Made by a program: the position numbers and the translations under genes
Notes under the pieces: model-generated
Told to the model about the DNA's origin: nothing
The model's input: the letters and a program-made list of their open reading frames with translations, nothing else
Database searches by the model: none
Shown: positions 28,912-43,518 of the stretch, one piece after another
Layout of the letters: every line of letters starts with the position of its first letter
How positions within the stretch are numbered: position 1 is the stretch's first letter
IMG/VR virus record: IMGVR_UViG_3300030389_002117
Location: 1-57,719 of that record
Reading direction: 5' to 3' (one strand)
Source: a virus
Lineage: Duplodnaviria; Caudoviricetes
DNA length: 57,719 nt

Positions 28912-29505
28912 ATGACGATGATAGTAGAGCCCGAACTGGGCGTACCGATGAAAAAAGAAAAGGCACCGATTGATTTTAAAGATCGGGTCGAGTCGGCTGC
29001 AAATACAGCGAGTGAGCTCGAAGAACATGGGCTTGATCTTGAACCGTCTAAAGAAGATAAAGATATTGCAGCTAAACTTGTGACCTCCTATGCAGAAAAC
29101 TCTGAAAAAACATCAAATAAAGTAACAGATAAGAAGATTGCGACTCTTACACCGGCTTCTTTGAGGCTCACAGATAGTATTTTAAAAGAATTTGGACGCT
29201 CTGTTGTCGAAAGTTCGGTGCAAATACGTCATTTGGTGACCAACAAACTTCTTTTAGAAACTGATAACCCTGATCCACGGGTAAGAATCCGTGCTTTGGA
29301 GCTTTTAGGAAAGATTTCTGACGTCGGATTGTTCACAGATAAGTCAGAAGTTACTATAACACATCAATCTACAGCCGATTTACGTGAAAAACTTCGTTCG
29401 AAGTTGTCAAAACTTGTTAATCCGCCAGAAGAAGCGGTAATTTTGGACGGAGAACCCGTAAATGTGGACGAAGAACTCGGATTAAACGAGGAAAAAGATG
29501 AATAA
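28912..29505 (+). CDS. terS: Terminase small subunit (putative)
   Basis: Directly upstream of and overlapping terL. RIRALELLGK..DVGLFT helical motif. Confidence 0.65.
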   Translation: MTMIVEPELGVPMKKEKAPIDFKDRVESAANTASELEEHGLDLEPSKEDKDIAAKLVTSYAENSEKTSNKVTDKKIATLTPASLRLTDSILKEFGRSVVESSVQIRHLVTNKLLLETDNPDPRVRIRALELLGKISDVGLFTDKSEVTITHQSTADLREKLRSKLSKLVNPPEEAVILDGEPVNVDEELGLNEEKDE

Positions 29506-31051
29506 ACCCGTTTTAGACTTCACGGAGGAGGAAATACAGCTGATGTTGGACAATTTAGACCAATATACTCCTGAAGAAGTTGCAGAAATTGACAGAATGG
29601 TCGATGAATTGGCTATTCGCAATAAAAATCAGGCATCTTACGACGATTTAATTGCTTTTTGTAGAGCGATGCAGCCTGATTACATCGTAGGTAAGCATCA
29701 TCGCATGCTGGCAGATATGCTCATGGGGATTGAAAGAGGAGAAAAGGACCGTATTTGCGTGAATATTCCTCCTCGACATGGCAAATCTCAGCTTGTTTCG
29801 ATTATGTTTCCTGCATGGTTTCTTGGACGAAACCCAACAAAAAAGGTTATGATGGTGTCCCATACGACTGATCTTGCAGTCGATTTTGGGCGTAAAGTTC
29901 GTAACTTAATAGCCACAGAGGCTTATGAGGCAATCTTTCCAACCGTTAAATTAGCAGTAGACTCAAAATCAGCAGGACGGTGGAATACAAATACAGGAGG
30001 TGAATATTATGCGTGTGGTATTGGTTCTTCTATTGCTGGGCGGGGGGCTGATCTCTTGCTCGTCGACGACCCACACTCTGAACAAGACGTCATTAATGGA
30101 AACTTTGAAGTGTTCGAAAAAGCTTACGACTGGTTCACTTTCGGGGCTCGTACCCGTCTTATGCCAGGAGGTAGCGTTGCCATAATCCAAACCCGTTGGC
30201 ACATGGACGACTTGACAGGACGTGTTGTAAAAGACATGTCACAGAATGATCGGTCTGATCAGTATGAAGTTGTAGAGTTTCCAGCGATTATAGACACAGT
30301 AGATAAAGAAACAGGACTATCTGTTCAAAAACCTTTATGGGCTGAGTTTTTTGACCTGGAAGCTCTACTACGTACAAAAGCATCTATGCCGGTGTTTCAG
30401 TGGAATGCTCAGTATCAACAAGAGCCAACCGCTGAAGAAGCAGCTTTGGTTAAACGAGAGTGGTGGCAAAGATGGAAGAAAGAAAACCCACCCCTTTGCG
30501 AATATATTATCATGTCTTTGGATGCTGCAGCTGAAACGCACAACCGGGCAGACTACACTGCTTTGACGACTTGGGGCGTTTTTTTGAACGAAGAGGTAGA
30601 CAACTACAATATTATTCTGTTAAATAGTATAAAGAAGCGGTTAGAGTTTCCTGAGCTTAAACAAACAGCGATGGATCAGTACAGTGAATGGGAGCCCGAC
30701 TCGTTTATCGTAGAAAAGAAAAGTGCAGGTACAGCCCTGTACCAAGAAATGAGGAGAATGGGAATCCCTGTATCAGAGTTTACTCCACACAGAGGTTCTG
30801 GAGATAAGATGGCAAGACTTAATTCTGTGACAGATATCGTAGCATCAGGGCTTGTATGGATACCTGAAACACGTTGGGCAGAAGAAGTCGTAGAAGAAAT
30901 AGCAGGATTCCCGTTTATGAGTAATGATGACCTCGTAGACGCAACCGTCATGGCTCTTATGCGATTTAGGCAGGGCGGCTTTATAAGACTACCAAACGAT
31001 GAACCAGACGAGGTTCAATATTTTAAACGTAGAAAAAATGGATTTTACTAA
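29498..31051 (+). CDS. terL: Terminase large subunit
   Basis: Walker A PPRHGKS, Walker B LLLVDD, QTRWH, and RNase H-like SLD..DYTA..DDLVDA. Confidence 0.95.
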   Translation: MNKPVLDFTEEEIQLMLDNLDQYTPEEVAEIDRMVDELAIRNKNQASYDDLIAFCRAMQPDYIVGKHHRMLADMLMGIERGEKDRICVNIPPRHGKSQLVSIMFPAWFLGRNPTKKVMMVSHTTDLAVDFGRKVRNLIATEAYEAIFPTVKLAVDSKSAGRWNTNTGGEYYACGIGSSIAGRGADLLLVDDPHSEQDVINGNFEVFEKAYDWFTFGARTRLMPGGSVAIIQTRWHMDDLTGRVVKDMSQNDRSDQYEVVEFPAIIDTVDKETGLSVQKPLWAEFFDLEALLRTKASMPVFQWNAQYQQEPTAEEAALVKREWWQRWKKENPPLCEYIIMSLDAAAETHNRADYTALTTWGVFLNEEVDNYNIILLNSIKKRLEFPELKQTAMDQYSEWEPDSFIVEKKSAGTALYQEMRRMGIPVSEFTPHRGSGDKMARLNSVTDIVASGLVWIPETRWAEEVVEEIAGFPFMSNDDLVDATVMALMRFRQGGFIRLPNDEPDEVQYFKRRKNGFY

Positions 31052-33435
31052 TGGCAGTTGAAAAAGGGTTATACCAAGCACCAGAAGGTTTATCAGAAGC
31101 ATCTGTTTCTGAATTAGAAGTTGAAATCGTTAATCCTGAAAGTGTTACACTTGATGATGGCAGTATGGAAATTACTCTCGTACCTGAACCCGAAGGGAAA
31201 ACAACAGGTAACTTTGATGAGAATATTGCTGAAATTATTGATGAGTCTGTTCTTGGTACTCTTGCCGATGATATTTTAGCAGCTGTTGACTCTGATACAT
31301 ACAGTCGGAAAGACTGGGCGGATACATTCGTTAAGGGACTCGATGTGTTGGGTTTTAGATACGAAGAACGCACAGAACCCTGGGAGGGAGCTTGTGGAGT
31401 TTATTCTACAGTGCTTGCTGAAGCAGCAATCCGGTTCCAAGCAGAAACCATGAGCGAAACATTTCCGTCAGCTGGACCGGTTAAAACTAAGATATTAGGT
31501 GAAGACACAAGGGAGAAAGAAGAATCAGCAAAACGTGTACAAGCAGACATGAATTATCAGCTGACAGAGAACATGGTTGAGTATAGACCAGAACATGAAA
31601 GACTGCTTTACAGCCTAGGACTCGCCGGGTCAGCATTTAAAAAAGTATATTACGACCCAAACATGGGACGACAGATGGCAGTATTTATTCCTGCCGAAGA
31701 TGTAATTGTGCCTTACGGGGCTTCGCATGTTGAGACAGCCGAGCGGGTTACTCATGTCATGCGTAAAACAAAGAACGAACTAAAGAAATTACAGGCTAAC
31801 GGGTTTTACCGTGATGTTGAACTTGGAGAGCCTGAAGCTTATCACAGTGACATTGAGAAAAGAAAAGCAGAAGAAGGTGGGTACTCTCTTACAAGTGATG
31901 ACCGCTATAGTATATACGAAGTACATGCTGATCTTGTTATTGAAGGAGTTGATGATTCCGACGAAGGAATCGCTAAACCCTACGTGGTGACTATTGAACG
32001 TGGGTCATACGAAGTTTTAGCCATCCGTAGAAACTGGAACGCTGATGATGAGTTGATGTTGAAACGACAGCATTTCGTGCACTACGTCTATGTGCCGGGA
32101 TTTGGTTTCTATGGGCTTGGGCTTATTCACATTATTGGGGGGTATGCGAGAGCCGGGACATCTCTTATCCGTCAACTCGTAGACGCAGGAACTTTGGCAA
32201 ACTTGCCTGGAGGTCTAAAAGCTCGTGGGTTACGTATCAAAGGAGATGACACACCCATAGAACCAGGATCATTTAGAGATGTTGATGTACCGTCAGGCAG
32301 TATTAAAGATAACATTATGACTTTGCCTTATAAAGAGCCAAGTCAAACACTCTTACAACTTCTCGATAGAATAACAAAAGAGGGGCGAAGACTTGGAGCA
32401 ATCAGCGATATAAACGTCTCCGATATGTCTGCAAACGCCCCCGTAGGAACAACACTTGCTTTATTAGAGCGAACACTTAAACCCATGGCGGCGGTACAGG
32501 CTCGTGTTCACTATGCGATGAAGCAAGAGTTTAAATTATTAAAGACTTTGATGGCTGAGTATGCACCGATGAATTATTCTTACTCTCCCATCAGAGGCGA
32601 GGTAGATGCACGTCGGTCGGATTACATGACCACCGATGTCATTCCTGTGTCAGACCCTAATAGTTCTACTATGGCACAGAGAGTGGTGCAGTATCAGGCA
32701 GTTCTCCAGATGTCCCAGACTGCACCACAGATATATGACCTGCCACAATTACATAGGCAGATGGTAGAGGTATTAGGTGTGAAGAATGCAGAAAAACTAA
32801 TACCACTAAAAGAAGATATGCGTCCGCAAGACCCGATAAGCGAGAACATGGCAGCTTTGAGAGCCAAGCCAATGAGAGCGTTTATATATCAAGATCACGA
32901 GTCACATATTGCAACGCACATGTCTTTTATACAAGATCCGATGGTTATGCAGATGATAGGGCAAAACCCACAAGCCAAACAAATTATAGCGTCTTTACAG
33001 GCACATATAGCTGAACATCTAGGGTTTAAATATCGTAAAGATATTGAAGAACGTTTGGGTGTTGAGCTCCCAGCACCAGAGTCTGAATTACCTGAAGAGA
33101 TTGAAGTTAATCTTTCAAGCCTCGTAGCAAAAGCTGCAAGAGAACTTACACAATCAAATAAAAAACAAGCGGCTCAACAAGAGGCAATGAAAAAAGCACA
33201 AGACCCTGTTGTTCAAATGCAGCAAGCTGAATTGCAGATAAAGAAAGCAGAAGTAGATCGTAAAGCTCAAAAAGATAAAACAGATGCTTTACTTGATTTG
33301 GAAAAGTTGAAGTTAGATAAAGCTGAGTTAGAAATTAAAACACAGCGAGATAATGTAAAACTAGCAGCTGAAAAGAGACAAGCAGATAATAAATTAGATT
33401 TAGATGTGTTTAAAACAACGACAGGTAAAAAATAA
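31051..33435 (+). CDS. Portal protein
   Basis: 794 aa directly after terL, GSAFKKVYYD, GFYGLG, and a long C-terminal Gln/Lys coiled coil (P22-like barrel). Confidence 0.85.
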   Translation: MAVEKGLYQAPEGLSEASVSELEVEIVNPESVTLDDGSMEITLVPEPEGKTTGNFDENIAEIIDESVLGTLADDILAAVDSDTYSRKDWADTFVKGLDVLGFRYEERTEPWEGACGVYSTVLAEAAIRFQAETMSETFPSAGPVKTKILGEDTREKEESAKRVQADMNYQLTENMVEYRPEHERLLYSLGLAGSAFKKVYYDPNMGRQMAVFIPAEDVIVPYGASHVETAERVTHVMRKTKNELKKLQANGFYRDVELGEPEAYHSDIEKRKAEEGGYSLTSDDRYSIYEVHADLVIEGVDDSDEGIAKPYVVTIERGSYEVLAIRRNWNADDELMLKRQHFVHYVYVPGFGFYGLGLIHIIGGYARAGTSLIRQLVDAGTLANLPGGLKARGLRIKGDDTPIEPGSFRDVDVPSGSIKDNIMTLPYKEPSQTLLQLLDRITKEGRRLGAISDINVSDMSANAPVGTTLALLERTLKPMAAVQARVHYAMKQEFKLLKTLMAEYAPMNYSYSPIRGEVDARRSDYMTTDVIPVSDPNSSTMAQRVVQYQAVLQMSQTAPQIYDLPQLHRQMVEVLGVKNAEKLIPLKEDMRPQDPISENMAALRAKPMRAFIYQDHESHIATHMSFIQDPMVMQMIGQNPQAKQIIASLQAHIAEHLGFKYRKDIEERLGVELPAPESELPEEIEVNLSSLVAKAARELTQSNKKQAAQQEAMKKAQDPVVQMQQAELQIKKAEVDRKAQKDKTDALLDLEKLKLDKAELEIKTQRDNVKLAAEKRQADNKLDLDVFKTTTGKK

Positions 33436-33632
33436 TGGCTAAAACCGTCTTTGACGTGCTAAAAGAAAAAATCGAAGCTGACAAAGCTTCTGCAACAGAT
33501 TTTCTTGCTGGAGGGGGAGCAAAAGACTTTCCGCAGTATAGAGAAACGGCTGGCTTGATCCGAGGTCTTGAAGCTAGCTTGTCACACATAGAAGACCTTT
33601 CGCAAAATTATTTGAGAGAAGATGATGACTAA
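33435..33632 (+). CDS. Hypothetical protein
   Basis: 65 aa, TAATG-coupled to the portal gene. Confidence 0.7.
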   Translation: MAKTVFDVLKEKIEADKASATDFLAGGGAKDFPQYRETAGLIRGLEASLSHIEDLSQNYLREDDD

Positions 33633-33999
33633 AATAGAAAAATTAACTGACCAAGAACTTGAAGTACAATTACCCAAACCTGTGGGGTATAGAGTGCTTG
33701 TTGCATTACCACAAATCGAAGAAAACTACGAAAATACTAGCGTGTTGAAAACGGCAAAGGAAATGCAGAACGAACATATTATGTCAATTATTGGACTTGT
33801 TGTCGATATGGGCGACCAAGCGTATGTTGACAAAGAACGATTTGGCGATACACCTTGGTGTAAAGCAGGTGATTACGTGATGTTTCGTGCAAATACGGGC
33901 ACACGTTTTAAAATTGACGGTGTTGAGTATCGTTTGATGAACGATGATTCAATCGAAGCAGTTGTAGCAGACCCTCGTGGCGTAACGAGAGCAATTTAA
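33622..33999 (+). CDS. groES: Co-chaperonin GroES-like protein
   Basis: PVGYRVLV, GLVVDMG, WCKAGDYVMF, G.E.RLMNDDSIEAVV. Confidence 0.8.
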   Translation: MMTKIEKLTDQELEVQLPKPVGYRVLVALPQIEENYENTSVLKTAKEMQNEHIMSIIGLVVDMGDQAYVDKERFGDTPWCKAGDYVMFRANTGTRFKIDGVEYRLMNDDSIEAVVADPRGVTRAI

Positions 34000-34009
34000 G
34001 GATTAAAAT

Positions 34010-35071
34010 ATGACATTTCAAAAAGTTGAGTATACTTTTCCTGATGAAAAGAAAGAATTAGATACAAATATAGACGTAGAAAAATCAAGTGCATTAGAAG
34101 TCGATATTTCCGGGGATAAAAATGGTGCTAAAAATATTGAAGAAAAAGTTGAAGCCAAAGCAACTACCCCTGTTAATGGAAGTACATCTGATAAAAGTGA
34201 TATTGAAATTGAGGTATATGATGATACACCAGAAGCTGACAGAAATAGGAAACCTTCTAAACCGCCTGAAGACATCACTGATGAAGAACTTGAAGATTAT
34301 TCTGAAAAAGTTCGAAAGCGAATCCAACACTTCAGCAAAGGTTACCACGACGAAAGAAGAGCCAAAGAAGCGGCGTTCCGTGAAAAAACGGAACTCGAAA
34401 ACTTCTCAAAAAAGCTCGTCGAAGAAAACAAAAAATTAAAATCTGACGTTAGTAAAAATCAAGAAGCTTTGCTTGAACAAGCAAAGAAAACAGTGGCAGC
34501 TGAACTTGCTCAAGCTAAAAAGGTATATAAAGAAGCCTATGAAGCAGGAGATTCGGAAGCAATCATAGCCGCTCAAGAAAGTTTAACAAATGCTAACATT
34601 AAGACAGATAAGTTAAATGATTTTAAAATATCTCCTTTACAGGAACAAGAAACTACTGTAGAAGAGAATAAAGAGGTTCCTGCTACTCAACCACCTAAGG
34701 TGGACCCAAAAGCAGCAGCATGGGCTCAAAAGAATACTTGGTTCGGGCAAGATGACGAAATGACAAGTCTTGCGATGGGCATACATAATAAGCTAGCAAA
34801 TCAAGGAATTGATTTGCAAAGCGATGAATACTACGAGAAAATAGATACTCGTATGCGTCAAGTTTTTCCAGACTATTTTGGAGAAGCTGAAGAATCAGAG
34901 GCTGAAAAGCCAAAAAGACAAGCTAATGTGGTTGCACCAGCGACTCGGAGCACAGCTCCAAAAAAAATACGGTTGACCAAAACTCAGTTAGCTTTAGCGA
35001 AGAGATTAGGAGTAACACCCGAACAATACGCCAGACAGGTTGCAATAGACATGGGGAAAGAAAATGGCTGA
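34010..35071 (+). CDS. Putative scaffolding protein
   Basis: Acidic N-terminus, coiled coil, W...N.WFG, and C-terminal LT..Q..LA.RLGV..E.YA. Lies upstream of the capsid genes. Confidence 0.7.
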   Translation: MTFQKVEYTFPDEKKELDTNIDVEKSSALEVDISGDKNGAKNIEEKVEAKATTPVNGSTSDKSDIEIEVYDDTPEADRNRKPSKPPEDITDEELEDYSEKVRKRIQHFSKGYHDERRAKEAAFREKTELENFSKKLVEENKKLKSDVSKNQEALLEQAKKTVAAELAQAKKVYKEAYEAGDSEAIIAAQESLTNANIKTDKLNDFKISPLQEQETTVEENKEVPATQPPKVDPKAAAWAQKNTWFGQDDEMTSLAMGIHNKLANQGIDLQSDEYYEKIDTRMRQVFPDYFGEAEESEAEKPKRQANVVAPATRSTAPKKIRLTKTQLALAKRLGVTPEQYARQVAIDMGKENG

Positions 35072-36184: not shown

Positions 36185-37093
36185 ATGGCAATATCAAGAG
36201 CACAACTCCTTAAAGAACTACTTCCTGGGTTAAACGCATTATTCGGTTTAGAGTATGCAAAATATACCGAGGAGCACGCAGAAATTTTTGAAGCAGAAAC
36301 TTCTGACCGTTCTTTTGAAGAAGAAACCAAGCTGTCAGGCTTTTCAGCGGCACCAGTCAAAGACGAAGGTACAGCCATCGAATATGACAATGCACAAGAA
36401 GCTTTTACAGCTCGTTATAACCATGAAACAGTGGCAATGGGTTTTTCAATTACTGAAGAAGCTATTGAGGATAACCTGTATGATTCTTTATCTGCACGTT
36501 ATACAAAAGCACTCGCTCGTGCTATGGCGTATACAAAACAAGTTAAGGCAGCTTCTATTTTGAACAATGCCTTTGACTCAGGCACTACCTACGGCGATGG
36601 AGTAGAACTTTGCTCTACTGCACACCCGCTTGTAAGTGGTGGCACAAACTCCAACGAACCAGCAACAGGGGCTGACTTAAATGAGACTTCTCTCGAAGCT
36701 GCGATCATACAGATTTCGCAGTGGACTGATGAGAGAGGACTTTTGATTGCATCAAGAGCTCGTAAGCTGATTGTTCCACCCGACCTACAATTTGTAGCAA
36801 CAAGACTGCTTCAGACTGAAGGAAGAACCGGAACAGCAGACAACGACCTCAATGCGATACGTACTATGAGCTCGGTGCCTGAAGGATTTTCTGTTAACCA
36901 TTATTTAACAGATACTGACGCATGGTTCTTAATGACAGACATTCCTAACGGTCTGAAACACTTTACACGTACACCAATGTCAACATCTATGGACGCTGAC
37001 TTTGATACTGGTAATAGTCGTTATAAGGCTAGAGAAAGATACTCATTTGGTGTATCTGATCCTCTAGGAATATTTGGCTCACCAGGAGCGTAA
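36185..37093 (+). CDS. Major capsid protein (HK97 fold)
   Basis: 302 aa, strong SD, K.EG..I.YD, ITEEAIEDNLY and LIVPP.L motifs, followed by a terminator. Confidence 0.85.
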   Translation: MAISRAQLLKELLPGLNALFGLEYAKYTEEHAEIFEAETSDRSFEEETKLSGFSAAPVKDEGTAIEYDNAQEAFTARYNHETVAMGFSITEEAIEDNLYDSLSARYTKALARAMAYTKQVKAASILNNAFDSGTTYGDGVELCSTAHPLVSGGTNSNEPATGADLNETSLEAAIIQISQWTDERGLLIASRARKLIVPPDLQFVATRLLQTEGRTGTADNDLNAIRTMSSVPEGFSVNHYLTDTDAWFLMTDIPNGLKHFTRTPMSTSMDADFDTGNSRYKARERYSFGVSDPLGIFGSPGA

Positions 37094-37100
37094 AAAAATT

Positions 37101-37130
37101 AAAGGGGTGGCTTGAAAACCGCCCCTTTTT
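37101..37130 (+). terminator. Rho-independent terminator after the MCP
   Basis: AAAGGGGTGG-CTTGAAAA-CCGCCCCTTTTT. Confidence 0.8.
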
Positions 37131-37933: not shown

Positions 37934-37980
37934 TTAACCAGGTGGGGCTAACGCCCCACTCCCTAAAATAGGAGATTAAT

Positions 37981-38583
37981 ATGGGATTATCAGACGTACA
38001 AGCACTTACCATAAATGATGAAAACGCATCTGACGATGACAGAATTGTTACGGCAGCAAGACCAAATACAACAGCCACTTTAGCAAACACGACGTTTGCG
38101 GGAGGTGCGGCTAGAAACATTATTGTTACAACGACTGGCACTGGCGATAATAGTAAAACAACTACAATTACCGGCACCGATGTTTTTGGAGATTCTTTGA
38201 GTGAAACAATCACTTCAACTGGATCAGCAGAAGCTGTTGCAGGTACAAAGTTATTTTTAACTGTTTCAGCCGTAGAGTGTTCTGAACAGTATGCAGCTAA
38301 TATTAAAGTTGGTTCTGGTACATTGTGTGCTCAAGCTGTCAATGGTAGTAATCGTGTTAGATTAAAAGGCATGTCTATTACATCTGGTGGCACAGCTGGA
38401 GATGTAGAGTTTATTGATGGAGCACCTGAAGATGGAACAACTTTATTTAAGTCTCGCACGATTGGGACAGCTAATACAGTAATTGACAGGACAATACCAT
38501 CAGAAGGAGTTGTTTTTAGGAGCGGGTTATCTGTTAAGTACACGGTAGATGTAGCTGACATGATAACAATTTTCCATGCGTAA
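37981..38583 (+). CDS. Virion structural protein
   Basis: AGGAG SD, Thr/Gly-rich beta protein with ITGTD..G..E.I and IP.EGV.F motifs. Confidence 0.6.
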   Translation: MGLSDVQALTINDENASDDDRIVTAARPNTTATLANTTFAGGAARNIIVTTTGTGDNSKTTTITGTDVFGDSLSETITSTGSAEAVAGTKLFLTVSAVECSEQYAANIKVGSGTLCAQAVNGSNRVRLKGMSITSGGTAGDVEFIDGAPEDGTTLFKSRTIGTANTVIDRTIPSEGVVFRSGLSVKYTVDVADMITIFHA

Positions 38584-38887
38584 GTATTACAAAAGCGGTC
38601 GCAGAGTAAAAGGAAAAGGCATGAAAGGCATGTCCATCAGAAGTGGAGACAAAAGACCCACAAAAGCTGGTGCGGGCATGACCGCTAAAGGTGTAGCTAA
38701 ATATAGGAGACAAAATCCTGGGTCAAAACTTCAAACAGCTGTAACTGAGAAGAAACCCACAGGCAAACGAGCTGCTCGCAGGAAGTCTTTTTGTGCACGA
38801 TCAGCGGGGCAAATGAAAAAGTTTCCAAAGGCAGCTAAAGATCCAAATAGTCGTTTAAGACAAGCCCGAAGAAGGTGGAGATGTTAA
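38576..38887 (+). CDS. Small basic protein (DUF6321-like)
   Basis: GMTAKG..Y...NPGSKL, RRKSFCARS and ARRRWRC. Very Lys/Arg-rich. Confidence 0.7.
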   Translation: MRKYYKSGRRVKGKGMKGMSIRSGDKRPTKAGAGMTAKGVAKYRRQNPGSKLQTAVTEKKPTGKRAARRKSFCARSAGQMKKFPKAAKDPNSRLRQARRRWRC

Positions 38888-39007
38888 GTGGCAATATCGA
38901 GAGCACAAATGGGAAAACAAATAGCAAATCCTCCTCAAAAGAGGAAGTTTTCCAAATTATCACAACAAAGAAAAAAAGTAGCAAAAAAGAAGAGAGAGAA
39001 AAAGTAA
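38888..39007 (+). CDS. 39-aa basic peptide with MCP-identical N-terminus (not in ORF track)
   Basis: GGAG SD 7 nt before GTG. MAISRAQMGKQIANPPQKRKFSKLSQQRKKVAKKKREKK. Abuts the upstream stop and is TAATG-coupled to 39007. Confidence 0.7.
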   Translation: MAISRAQMGKQIANPPQKRKFSKLSQQRKKVAKKKREKK

Positions 39008-39711
39008 TGGCATATTTAATAAGTAATATACCGCATTTTAAATGCTGGGTTCGAAAAGAATACACAAATAATCACGAGAACTATCATGGAGATTATATAC
39101 ATGGTTTGGCGATTGCTGTTAACACGATACCAGACAGATGTTTAAGTTTTCAAGTTGTCTTTACGGGTTGCGAATCAGATGACACTGATGAAGAAAATGT
39201 ACATGGAGGAGCTATGTGGGCTCGTATGCCTATCACAGCTTTAGTTGCTGACCAATGGTATGAAGAGTTCCCTGAAAGAATGGAGACACACTTAGCACAG
39301 CCCTGGGATTGTAGTTCTCATCACCATTCTGTGGTTGTTTTAGAGCGTGTAAGTTCTAGCCCATGGATATGTAAAATAGATGGAGAATTTTATCAAGGTA
39401 AATACTTATTTACCGTAGACTACACAGAGAATCACATAGCTGATGATCCTGCTCAACACAAACAAAGTCATGTGTTGCAGTTAACAGATGCAGGAGAATG
39501 GACAGGCAATATTGTTGCCTTGCCCAATAATAGAGTCAGGGCGACAAGTCCTGCGTTATGGGAGACTGGCGAGGGACCACCAGACTTTAAACCAAGTCAA
39601 TATCTACACGCCGCAGAAATACACAGTAGTTACCTTGACCCAAGTGTAACTTTTGATAATCTATACGCATCACAAGAAGGAGACTCAGAAGATGAAAATG
39701 AAGAAGGATGA
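39007..39711 (+). CDS. Hypothetical globular His/Cys/Trp-rich protein
   Basis: Start moved to ATG 39007 (MAYLISNIP). GGAMWARMPI, QPWDCSSHHH, QHKQSH and ALPNNR motifs. Confidence 0.7.
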   Translation: MAYLISNIPHFKCWVRKEYTNNHENYHGDYIHGLAIAVNTIPDRCLSFQVVFTGCESDDTDEENVHGGAMWARMPITALVADQWYEEFPERMETHLAQPWDCSSHHHSVVVLERVSSSPWICKIDGEFYQGKYLFTVDYTENHIADDPAQHKQSHVLQLTDAGEWTGNIVALPNNRVRATSPALWETGEGPPDFKPSQYLHAAEIHSSYLDPSVTFDNLYASQEGDSEDENEEG

Positions 39712-40204
39712 AAAAAAGAAAAAAAATAAAAAAGGCATGGCTGCCGGTGGTAAAACAAAAAAAGGTTTTGCTATGGGTAAAACTGTTAACATGAAGAAAA
39801 AAGGCATGGCTGCTGGAGGTGAATTAAAAAATGTTGATTCCTCTAAAAACCCTGGGTTAGCCAAGTTACCTGAAGATGTTAGAAATAAAATGGGTTTTAA
39901 GAAAGCAGGGGGTTCTATTAAAAAGAAAAAAGGCATGGCTGCTGGAGGCATGATGAAGAAAAAAGGCATGGCTGCCGGTGGTAAAACGAAAAAAGGTTTT
40001 GCCATGGGTAAAACAGTCAACATGAAGAAAAAAGGCATGGCTGCTGGCGGTAAGATGAAGAAAGGTTTTGCCATGGGCAAAGCTGTTAATATGAAGAAAA
40101 AAGGTATGGCTGCTGGTGGTAGAATGAAGAAAGGCTACGCTAATGGAGGTCAGATCCGGGGAGCTGGTATGGCTCGTGGGGTTAAACCTACATTAATGAG
40201 GTAA
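39692..40204 (+). CDS. Highly basic repeat protein (KKGMAAGG x6, KKGFAMGK x3)
   Basis: AAGGAG SD before ATG 39692. Repeats are visible at DNA and protein level. Confidence 0.8.
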   Translation: MKMKKDEKKKKNKKGMAAGGKTKKGFAMGKTVNMKKKGMAAGGELKNVDSSKNPGLAKLPEDVRNKMGFKKAGGSIKKKKGMAAGGMMKKKGMAAGGKTKKGFAMGKTVNMKKKGMAAGGKMKKGFAMGKAVNMKKKGMAAGGRMKKGYANGGQIRGAGMARGVKPTLMR

Positions 40205-40206
40205 TC

Positions 40207-40380
40207 ATGCGTAGGTATTACAAAGGTGGAGGTAAGATTTGCCCAGCAGGAAAAGCCTGGGCAAAACGAACCTTCGATACGTATCCTAGTGCTTATGCAA
40301 ATATGGCTGCGTCTAAGTATTGTAAGGACCCTAACTATGCTAAAGGTAGCAAAAAGAAAAAAAAGAAAAAGAGGAGCTAA
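40207..40380 (+). CDS. Small basic protein (57 aa, PSAYAN motif, not in ORF track)
   Basis: GAGG SD. MRRYYKGGGKICPAGKAWAKRTFDTYPSAYANMAASKYCKDPNYAKGSKKKKKKKRS. Confidence 0.7.
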   Translation: MRRYYKGGGKICPAGKAWAKRTFDTYPSAYANMAASKYCKDPNYAKGSKKKKKKKRS

Positions 40381-40547
40381 TGCCACATTATACTAAGAAA
40401 TTAACTAAAGTAATTAAAGGTCTAAAGAAAGCATCTAAATTACATGCAGGACAAGCTAAAACTTTAAGTGGTATAAAAAAAGACCAAAAGACTAGATATA
40501 CTATGAATAAACATACCGCTAAAAAACCTGCAAAGAAAAAAAGGTGA
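40380..40547 (+). CDS. Small basic protein (55 aa, not in ORF track)
   Basis: GAGGAG SD, TAATG coupling. MPHYTKKLTKVIKGLKKASKLHAGQAKTL... Confidence 0.7.
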   Translation: MPHYTKKLTKVIKGLKKASKLHAGQAKTLSGIKKDQKTRYTMNKHTAKKPAKKKR

Positions 40548-40551
40548 TCTC

Positions 40552-40821
40552 ATGGGGGCACTTAAAGATTGGGTTAAACAAGATTGGGTTCGTATTGGAA
40601 CTGACGGTAAAATAAAAGGTAAATGCGGGACTTCTAAAGATAAAAAGAACCCTGATAGATGTTTGCCTAGGAGTAAAGCTAATAGTTTGACAAAATCTCA
40701 AAGAGCTCAAACTGCTCGAAAAAAGAAGCGAGAGGGAGCAAAAGGAAAAACTGTGGTAAAAAATACAAAACCTGCTACAGTAAAAATGCGTATAGGTGGA
40801 TTAGCAAGGAGAAAAAGATGA
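40552..40821 (+). CDS. Small basic protein (DUF5872-like)
   Basis: LKDWVKQDWV, KCG and RCLP motifs. Ends MRIGGLARRKR. Confidence 0.65.
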   Translation: MGALKDWVKQDWVRIGTDGKIKGKCGTSKDKKNPDRCLPRSKANSLTKSQRAQTARKKKREGAKGKTVVKNTKPATVKMRIGGLARRKR

Positions 40822-41033
40822 CGCAAAAAGAGATAGCAGACTTGAGAGCAGAATATTTTGATGGTCCTGCTTCTGATTTTCAGGGGTTTTTTGATTTTTT
40901 AAAGTCTAAAGGAGTTGACCCTAAAGATTTTAAAAAATTTAAAAGTGGTGAGCTTGTTAGAAAAAAACGTAAGATTGCTAGAGGTTGTGGTGCGATCATG
41001 GAAAAAAGAAGAAAGAAAACTTTATATATTTAG
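40818..41033 (+). CDS. Small protein with basic C-terminus
   Basis: AAGGAG SD, ATGA overlap. Ends ...IARGCGAIMEKRRKKTLYI. Confidence 0.65.
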   Translation: MTQKEIADLRAEYFDGPASDFQGFFDFLKSKGVDPKDFKKFKSGELVRKKRKIARGCGAIMEKRRKKTLYI

Positions 41034-43077: not shown

Positions 43078-43518
43078 GTGGCTTTTACAGGTAATTTTTT
43101 ATGCACATCTTTTAAGGTAGCTCTTTTAAATGGAGAGATGGACTTCAGCAGTGATACCTCTCAAACATTTAAAATTGCTTTGTATACCAATAGTGCAAGT
43201 TTTGATGCATCTACTACAGCCTATACAACAACAAATGAAATAAGTGGCACAGGATATACTGCGGGTGGAAATACTTTAACCATAGCAACTAACCCTACAA
43301 GCGATACTGGCGGCACTGTAGCATATTTAGATTTTTCTGATACAACTTGGACGAGTGCAACTATTACAGCTAGAGGAGCTTTAATATATAAATCAGGAGG
43401 TACAAATCCAGCCATAGCTGTTTTAGATTTTGGAGCCGACAAGTCAACAATTTCTGGAACGTTTAAGGTTGAATTTCCTGTTTCAAACGCCACCACCGCA
43501 ATATTACGAATAGCTTAG
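43078..43518 (+). CDS. Tail-associated structural protein
   Basis: AAGGAG SD before GTG. FKIALY, E.SGTGYTAGG and ARGALIY motifs. Confidence 0.65.
   Translation: MAFTGNFLCTSFKVALLNGEMDFSSDTSQTFKIALYTNSASFDASTTAYTTTNEISGTGYTAGGNTLTIATNPTSDTGGTVAYLDFSDTTWTSATITARGALIYKSGGTNPAIAVLDFGADKSTISGTFKVEFPVSNATTAILRIA

Follow-up and report, generated by a model that had tools for sequence, protein, structure and literature searches.

A conserved 39-residue gene in a relative of HTVC023P-type pelagiphages begins with a short box resembling the tip of the coat protein

Background

In phage T4, a short N-terminal capsid targeting sequence (CTS) is described as the sole element shared by the internal proteins, which it directs into the scaffolding core (PMC3012670). 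The subject of this report is a gene for a 39-residue basic peptide whose first dozen residues, termed here the N-box, resemble the N-terminal end of the major capsid protein (MCP, or coat protein) of the same phage. The gene is located at positions 38888..39007 on the plus strand of the IMG/VR virus record IMGVR_UViG_3300030389_002117 (Duplodnaviria; Caudoviricetes). The window analysed here is this entire record, 57,719 bases in length, for which a completeness of 93% is estimated.

Short terminal sequences have been assigned roles in several other shells. In phage P1, the first 30 residues of DarB are reported to suffice for packaging (PMC9024508). In staphylococcal phage 80alpha, the capsid protein, the scaffolding protein and the host ribosomal protein L27 share an N-terminal motif that is described, for the scaffold, as essential for assembly (PMC5744158). 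Encapsulins use terminal peptides of 10-20 residues to load cargo on the inner face of an HK97-fold shell as it self-assembles, at a site described as consisting of the shell N-terminal helix and the P-domain (PMC11664910). In the P22 procapsid, a helix-turn-helix of the scaffold is reported to bind the N-terminal helix (N-arm) of the coat protein (PMC9965877).

The closest named relatives of the window phage are the Pelagibacter phages HTVC023P and HTVC027P, with ~65% DNA identity across the capsid gene. It is a podovirus-type relative of HTVC023P-type pelagiphages, ~58 kb in size, and its cultured relatives infect SAR11.

The 39-residue gene and its family

The open reading frame (ORF) starts with GTG, read as Met, and encodes MAISRAQMGKQIANPPQKRKFSKLSQQRKKVAKKKREKK, a product with a net charge of +14 and an isoelectric point of 12. 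It exactly occupies the gap between the gene for a DUF6321 protein and the next gene (Table 1). The TAA of the DUF6321 gene (38885-38887) abuts the GTG, a Shine-Dalgarno-like GGAGAT lies shortly ahead of it, and at 39007, in TAATG, the TAA of the peptide overlaps with the start codon ATG of the gene that follows. An earlier account made without database searches (the sequence-only reading) had proposed a GTG-start ORF with a Shine-Dalgarno sequence and a coupled stop, and each of these elements is in place. Homologues in three related loci (L081, L091 and L028) also have an RRWRC-stop or RRWKC-stop context ahead of them. The GGAGAT of the peptide gene belongs to the coding sequence for RRWRC, the conserved end of the DUF6321 protein, and a likeness to the GGAGAT of the MCP gene is therefore meaningless.

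The peptide is concealed by an ORF of 278 amino acids (aa) that runs from its own GTG at 38875 to 39711. In the relatives L081, L085 and L091, the frame of the extension contains stops ahead of the conserved MAYL.. start, and the peptide frame is open there. The 278-aa ORF is a false 5' extension, and the true start of the downstream gene is the ATG at 39007. The sequence-only reading was thus correct to describe the peptide as hidden under a spurious N-terminal extension.

In L081, L085 and L091, the MCP gene is 89-93% identical to that of the window, and the peptide homologue lies 2-3 kb further downstream. Identity between the window peptide and these three, as well as several database clusters, is 74-79%. 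The four close homologues, the window included, differ by in-frame indels only, and the ratio of nonsynonymous to synonymous substitution rates (dN/dS) is 0.063-0.168 in four of their six pairs; the other two pairs, both of which include the window, are saturated in dS. In L085, all 12 N-box residues are kept though 9 of the 12 codons have changed.

A family profile made from the peptide and four natural homologues was searched against 5.8 billion proteins; out of 274 candidates, 68 clusters pass at E<=10 and 66 of these at E<=1e-3. Two subfamilies can be recognized among the 57 of 68 matched sequences that were inspected. Members of the window subfamily are 37-46 aa in length and consist of the N-box, NPP.K and SKLSQKRKK, often ending in ..DGVSTK; the window peptide fits their formula, M[AT]ISRAQMGKQIxNPPxK..SKLSQKRKK. 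Members of the second subfamily (51-56 aa) carry the N-box and SKPPQKRKWS followed by KRKxINCxRPxGFSEKAHCA.

In HTVC023P, which is cultured on Pelagibacter HTCC1062, an annotated ORF of 46 aa, gp50, carries the N-box (E 0.002), and neither HTVC027P nor Roseobacter phage CRP-901 gives a peptide match at E<=10. No family in Pfam or PHROGs matches the 39-aa peptide, an Rfam scan places no RNA family on its ORF, and an ESM Atlas search returns only unnamed clusters of 41-43 aa. In non-exhaustive searches of the full-text literature on HTVC023P and on DUF6321, DUF5872 and DUF5824, neither the peptide family nor the N-box is described.

Layout and conservation indicate that 38888-39007 is a genuine, translationally coupled late gene under purifying selection, with a polycationic product. 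The peptide family occurs in HTVC023P-type pelagiphage relatives and is uncharacterised but sizeable. The sequence-only reading had named a lack of conservation among the results that would count against it, and the 66 clusters and the dN/dS values are the opposite of such a result. Whatever the N-box signifies, the annotation is corrected by a real 39-aa gene beneath the false 5' extension of its neighbour, and a family of 66 clusters is defined.

The N-box

The MCP begins MAISRAQLLKELLPGLNALFG, and its first seven residues are identical to those of the peptide, with 19 of 21 bases shared. The DNA at the two starts, ATGGCAATATCAAGAGCACAA for the peptide and GTGGCAATATCGAGAGCACAA for the MCP, differs in the start codon and in a synonymous TCA/TCG Ser codon, which agrees with what the sequence-only reading had reported. 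Likeness extends beyond the seven residues to about 12, as MAISRAQ-[L/M]-x-K-[E/Q]-[L/I]. Allowing three mismatches or fewer, the only two occurrences of the 21-base pattern RTGGCAATATCRAGAGCACAA are those at the peptide and MCP starts, and a pair of matches arose in 0 of 100 shuffles.

All 36 aligned members of the peptide family have R5 and Q11. Hydrophobic residues occupy positions 3, 8 and 12, and small ones positions 4 and 6. The consensus spans ~12 residues and reads M-a-I-S-R-small-Q/S-[MIL]-x-K/Q-Q/E-[ILV]. Among the MCPs, I3, R5, K10 and L12 are invariant, and A2, Q7 and E11 are nearly so.

To keep the window's own coincidence out of the comparison, a log-odds matrix was derived from 36 distinct database peptides, each represented by its first 12 residues. 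When 1852 starts on both strands of the window are scored, the peptide reaches 35.8 bits and the MCP 15.6, and the next best start has 1.1 bits. For 4736 ORFs of at least 80 aa from all loci, the mean score is -20.2 (standard deviation 9.1), and the top ranks are taken by longer N-box proteins and MCP variants, most of them at 9-21 bits. An adaptor-like family starting MTISHSNFLTQV scores 2.5-11.2 bits and overlaps the lowest MCP variants, one of which has 3.9. With a threshold of 10 bits for start positions in 240 related loci and the window, 230 of 39,034 forward-strand starts qualify (129 MCP and 101 others, 81 of them unique) versus none of 28,146 on the reverse strand. Within the window genome, the N-box is confined to the MCP and the peptide.

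Synonymous variation is free in the N-box codons of both the peptide and the MCP. This freedom, together with the lack of an Rfam match on the ORF, argues that the constraint acts on the protein and not on the mRNA. The MCP-like start is a genuine, conserved module at the protein level. The proposal that the MCP N-arm motif is reused holds in the form of a portable module, for which a matrix made from peptides only singles out the MCP.

An RNA-level element and a recent DNA duplication were also considered as sources of the likeness. Both were rejected, since the codons vary freely, no Rfam family is found, and the two starts have unrelated flanks, GGAGAT excepted.

A separate start of the 'MAIS' type is found in a structural-region protein of ~142 aa (43078-43518, plus strand). 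In many relatives this protein begins MAI(S/T)QAMCTSFK.. (for example, L119 8270 and L109 10704), and in the window it starts MAFTGNFLCTSFK.. from GTG. This start falls below the N-box threshold.

Proteins that carry the N-box

Across the 240 loci and the window, the 101 non-MCP ORFs with an N-box have about ten unrelated basic tail types, a number that comes from inspecting the listed sequences (Table 1). Clustering by blastp without composition correction lumped the Lys-rich sequences into nine groups. In L029 and L077, the DUF6321 proteins have a degenerate, N-box-like start (MAINRKEK.., from GTG), and the DUF6321 protein of the window is without one.

The module forming the tail in the 51-56-aa subfamily, ..KWSxKYKxSINCxNPKGFSQKAHCAGKKK, has a wide distribution in its own right, with 1657 representatives at E<=0.001, most of which match this part only. 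It often lies at a terminus, either the extreme C-terminus or the N-terminus, in proteins that reach 1260 aa (P0078, P0084, P0086, P0087, P0091 and P0106). It occurs twice in one protein with a DUF6321-like start, and is also present in locus L236 (6216-6560).

Two C-terminal endings recur on otherwise different basic proteins and may be further portable tags. One, ..(R/K)GCG(A/V)xM..(K/R)RKKT.., is found in the 71-aa ORF of the window (40818-41033), in L028 (1992-2276) and in L076 (3044-3157). The other, ..RG(Y/C)G(M/K)ARGGxxxCKM.., is found in L101, L106, L113 and L128.

Coat protein and candidate scaffold

Family matches assign the MCP to the HK97 fold (Table 1). A Foldseek search with its structural model returns 70 PDB matches at E<=0.001, with SU10 and lambda capsids first and encapsulin shells among the neighbours; the best is the SU10 capsid 7z48_F (E 4.5e-7). 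When the MCP sequence was compared with those of solved structures, the outcome was a single chance match (PrgA, E 0.31). Over 121 unique MCPs, no 24-residue stretch is as conserved as residues 1-24, which rank 1 of 279 (entropy 0.257 versus 0.736 bits).

The acidic protein encoded upstream of the MCP is, judging from its model and position, a putative scaffolding protein, and 95 distinct homologues of it are found upstream of MCP genes. The model has a disordered acidic N-terminus, long confident helices (residues 99-179 and 182-203), a small helical domain, a disordered linker and a C-terminal helix-turn-helix. The last 40 residues have a net charge of +5. The motif of the helix-turn-helix, L-T-x-x-Q-V-x-x-A-K-x-L-G-V-P-L-E-x-Y-A-K, is kept across scaffolds of 30-72% identity, and by analogy with P22 this element is a candidate partner of the MCP N-arm.

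The first helix of this C-terminal element begins L-T-(R/K/Q)-T-Q-(V/L), which resembles the N-box core I-S-R-A-Q-L. The position equivalent to the Arg is K, Q, R, P, E or N across scaffolds, and because it is so variable the likeness is probably a generic helix-capping pattern.

In PHROGs and Pfam scans, none of the 26 ORFs that run from the terminase to the tail region matches a protease family, although one of an unknown family is possible, and the three ORFs that separate the GroES-like gene from the MCP give no protease match either. The N-box alignment has no conserved acidic cutting position.

Comparison with known systems

Among the described systems, the N-box appears to work most like the T4 CTS. 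The CTS of IPI-III and Alt is described as one short N-terminal peptide common to otherwise diverse, mostly basic proteins that finish within the head together with the DNA, and the N-box is likewise one short N-terminal peptide on otherwise unrelated late proteins. The T4 sequence is removed by the prohead protease, whereas the N-box has no conserved cutting motif and the 26 structural-region ORFs include no detected protease family. To our knowledge, the CTS does not resemble the N-terminus of the T4 coat protein, unlike the N-box. T4 is also a myovirus, unlike the podovirus-type phage that carries the N-box here. With one defining feature missing, the N-box is not filed as a member of the CTS class.

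P1 offers another likeness, because an N-terminal stretch of fewer than 30 residues of DarB is reported as sufficient to bring a foreign protein into the capsid (PMC9024508). The Dar N-termini are described as having no common consensus (PMC9024508), whereas here one box is present on many proteins and on the coat. The P1 cargo is a 250-kDa enzyme, and the would-be cargo here consists of polycations of 3-20 kDa.

We know of no documented case other than 80alpha in which an MCP and another phage protein share an N-terminal motif. The partner of the 80alpha capsid protein is the scaffold, whereas here the partners are tiny basic proteins in a phage whose cultured relatives infect SAR11. The 80alpha motif is also described as a cleavage site of the host protease Prp, which is described for Firmicutes, and as copied from L27 (PMC5744158).

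Encapsulins are comparable in that their shells are among the structural neighbours of the MCP model. Their cargo peptides have no sequence likeness to the N-box, and those of Family 1 are almost always C-terminal, do not resemble the shell terminus, and are attached to enzymes rather than polycations. P22 resembles the window phage, as modelled, in having an N-terminal helix on an HK97-fold coat and a separate scaffold, here a putative one, that ends in a basic helix-turn-helix. There is no sequence relation between the two systems, and the coat-scaffold contact in the window phage would be a counterpart by analogy. We know of no mimic of the N-arm on other P22 proteins.

Interpretation

The reading favoured here, which we hold tentatively and at slightly less than even chances, is that the N-box, similar as it is to the tip of the coat N-arm, is a portable tag at the protein level and brings polycationic mini-proteins into the procapsid. 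Because it resembles that tip, the N-box might make the contact that the tip normally makes during procapsid assembly, and would act as an uncleaved address tag. The partner could be the helix-turn-helix at the C-terminus of the scaffolding-like protein, which would parallel P22, or an adjacent coat subunit at the inner surface. Tagged mini-proteins would thereby be incorporated into the procapsid. On DNA packaging and exit of the acidic scaffold, their Lys/Arg tails would stay on the DNA as internal counter-ions or as ejected proteins. The lack of a detectable prohead protease among the 26 structural-region ORFs and of a cutting motif argues against a cleaved tag of the T4 type. Each step from the conserved portable module to an address tag is one that we infer.

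A more far-reaching form of this proposal is possible but doubtful. It holds that, in what is the most abundant group of SAR11 phages known, the coat N-arm tip has a second role as a transferable 'pack me' signal that needs no protease, and that a copy of ~12 residues co-assembles small polycations through the tip's own contact, to serve as DNA counter-ion or injected protein. If so, capsids would be loaded by self-mimicry of the shell protein, a strategy distinct from both the cleaved T4 tag and encapsulin cargo peptides. The block of small basic genes behind the coat gene in these phages has been wholly unannotated so far, and an address tag would explain them as head-internal polycations. 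Such a tag would also provide a sequence rule for packaged proteins in uncultured podoviruses without a head protease, and a 12-residue handle to load foreign proteins into such capsids.

Several observations weigh against an address tag. Co-variation with the MCP N-terminus, which the sequence-only reading had proposed as a check, is close to nil. For the 38 loci in which a family member and an MCP start occur together, and uncorrected for shared ancestry, identity at positions 2-12 is 4.13 of 11 for pairs from the same locus versus 4.00 across loci (permutation p 0.05), and 10.39 versus 9.99 of 18 at the DNA level (p 0.014). The MCP is nearly always MAISRAQL[LVA]KEL.., whereas peptides may begin MVMGRSQM, MTMGRSQM, MAISRGSM, MTISRSSI or MPIGRSQM. 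In HTVC027P and CRP-901 the MCP N-terminus is still conserved although no peptide is found, so its conservation is independent of the peptides. MCP residues 5-20 are modelled as a helix with low confidence, and the predicted local distance difference test (pLDDT) score of the N-arm is about 50. The candidate helix-turn-helix is basic, which makes it an unfavourable neighbour for a peptide of +14. Finally, S-x-x-Q ahead of an amphipathic helix is a generic motif of helix capping.

Strict co-variation of peptide and MCP was rejected as an explanation, the effect being marginal. Some pairs are suggestive: MAISRANIRQQV with MAINRGNIAKQL in L234, M-ISRASIRQQI with MAINRASISKQL in L043, and ..RSSASKQV with ..RSSISKEL in L215. 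No other case in the set is as extreme as that of the window, where codons 2-7 agree in 17 of 18 bases, and the 7/7 identity there marks the extreme of a looser family likeness. The MCP tip, as conserved as it is, also gives the peptides little variation to track.

The alternatives to an address tag differ in how much of this they can accommodate. That the ORF is no gene at all, and its MCP-like start an accident of intergenic sequence, might be suspected of a short, Lys-rich, low-complexity peptide with a GTG start and no Pfam or PHROG match. This is extremely improbable in view of the 66 homologous clusters, dN/dS values of 0.063-0.168 with in-frame indels, the closure of other frames in relatives, the DNA match found in 0/100 shuffles and a matrix threshold reached by 0/28,146 reverse-strand starts. 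The N-box could instead be an expression or stability leader, a neutral, helix-capped start that aids initiation, exit-tunnel clearance and survival of Lys/Arg-rich mini-proteins, with an MCP likeness due to convergence or old copying and with no capsid role. Such a leader would suit a box that is restricted to very basic proteins and the late protein of highest expression, that does not strictly track the MCP sequence, and that has no peptide to head in HTVC027P and CRP-901 despite their conserved MCP N-terminus. It is nevertheless unlikely, though worth keeping in mind, because many equally basic neighbours in the window lack the box (scores of -16 to -28 bits for the DUF6321 protein and for the ORFs of 57, 55 and 89 aa). 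In addition, the invariant R5 and Q11 and the fixed hydrophobic spacing look, in the alignment, like a binding surface, and synonymous codons vary too freely for a codon-level effect on initiation.

Two further explanations grant the likeness to the coat a real origin. If the N-box had once been copied from the MCP 5' end and were now a recombining mini-module kept for its fold or function (for example, nucleic-acid binding), no present link to the coat would be needed. It would remain unexplained why the copied piece stays closest to the MCP tip of all proteins in these genomes after long divergence, and the two starts show no trace of duplication at the DNA level. We consider such a relic of shuffling quite unlikely, even though the gene order around the downstream gene varies among 80 loci, the KWS..INC..GFS..AHC module, with its 1657 representatives at E<=0.001, is found alone, fused or terminal on long proteins, and the same tail families may have members with and without the N-box, as do the DUF6321 proteins, which have an N-box-like start in L029 and L077 and none in the window. 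Alternatively, the peptide might regulate assembly by competing with the coat N-arm tip for its partner, tuning procapsid timing or geometry or the release of the scaffold, without being cargo. The same matrix scores that relate the peptide to the MCP would fit this role, and molecular piracy by Staphylococcus aureus pathogenicity island (SaPI) proteins, which are described as redirecting 80alpha capsid assembly, is a precedent (PMC5744158). A competitor should track the coat sequence closely, and the peptide does not; the variety of long and short basic tails is hard to fit with a single regulatory role; and the gene is dispensable in HTVC027P and CRP-901. Regulation of this kind is accordingly an improbable function for the peptide.

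Table 1. Features of the window around the coat gene and the peptide gene, and the tail types found behind the N-box in related loci
Feature	Position or locus	Strand	Details
Large terminase	29498-31051	+	PHROGs/Pfam scan
Portal	31051-33435	+	PHROGs/Pfam scan
GroES-like co-chaperonin	33622-33999	+	PF00166, E 2.9e-8
Scaffolding-like protein, 353 aa, net -14	34010..35071	+	Model, position upstream of MCP; no Pfam family
C-terminal helix-turn-helix of scaffolding-like protein, residues 324-352	34979..35065	+	Helices 324-333 and 337-352; block pLDDT about 85-89
MCP, HK97 fold	36185..37093	+	phrog_371 'major head protein', E 5.9e-21; PF25209, E 1.7e-12, 48.7 bits (cut-off 27)
MCP N-arm tip, MAISRAQLLKEL, counterpart of the N-box	36185..36220	+	15.6 bits on the peptide-family matrix
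Upstream basic DUF6321 protein, 103 aa, net +32	38576..38887	+	PF19846, E 8.1e-14
Shine-Dalgarno-like GGAGAT, 5 nt ahead of GTG	38877..38882	+	Within last codons (..RRWRC-stop) of DUF6321 gene
N-box, first 12 codons, MAISRAQMGKQI	38888..38923	+	35.8 bits, top of 1852 window starts
Downstream acidic gene	39007..39711	+	phrog_3704, E 4.8e-33, matched from residue 1
Small basic ORF run: K/G-repeat protein, then 57-, 55-, 89- and 71-aa ORFs	39737..41033	+	ORF list
Two SU10-type adaptor paralogues	starting 41378	+	Late forward-strand block
Tail type: window-type 37-46-aa subfamily and 51-56-aa subfamily
Tail type: poly-Lys stubs, 27-35 aa
Tail type: KKKGYARGG repeats	L013-L015
Tail type: DUF5872 from residue 14	L028		28.1 bits, cut-off 27.5
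Tail type: 37-aa ..GCGVVM..RRKKT protein	L076
Tail type: 196-aa protein	L101		Residues 17-55 match phrog_16759 and two 'virion structural protein' PHROGs from profile position 1
Tail type: 104-158-aa proteins ending RGYGMARGGKxCKMR	L106, L113, L128
Tail type: 92-97-aa proteins	L012, L024
Tail type: 146-156-aa proteins	L029, L036, L077

Other features of the late gene block

The late block of the window is ordered as terminase, portal, GroES-like gene, three ORFs of unknown family, MCP, two acidic ORFs, the run of small basic ORFs and the adaptors. The placement of a GroES-like gene between the portal and scaffolding-like genes is also found in HTVC023P, HTVC027P and CRP-901.

The family of the gene at 39007-39711 is labelled 'ferredoxin' in PHROGs (phrog_3704) and PurM in the HTVC023P record. 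Genes of this type occur in more than 600 IMG/VR stretches with varied gene neighbourhoods, and the window copy is without a Pfam match. These two observations make both labels look doubtful.

Seven small ORFs with net charges of +9 to +38 are located between the head genes and the adaptor gene (38576-41033, plus strand), with the acidic phrog_3704 gene among them. Those in the run at 39737..41033 have, in order, net charges of +38, +16, +18, +23 and +9, and matches to phrog_27331 and phrog_23735 (function unknown) fall within it. A protein with KKKGMAAGG / KKGFAMGK repeats is encoded in this cluster at about 39692/39737-40204. Mini-modules of the cluster recur in related phages in other orders and fusions.

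Just past the MCP stop, the window carries a full-length match to the Rfam Mu-gpT-DE RNA (RF03012; 37148-37201, plus strand) that scores 67.5 bits, with a gathering score of 49. A strong terminator-like hairpin (37101-37128) lies upstream of this match. A second, weak RF03012 match of 20.8 bits (37961-37983) is located ahead of a 200-aa ORF.

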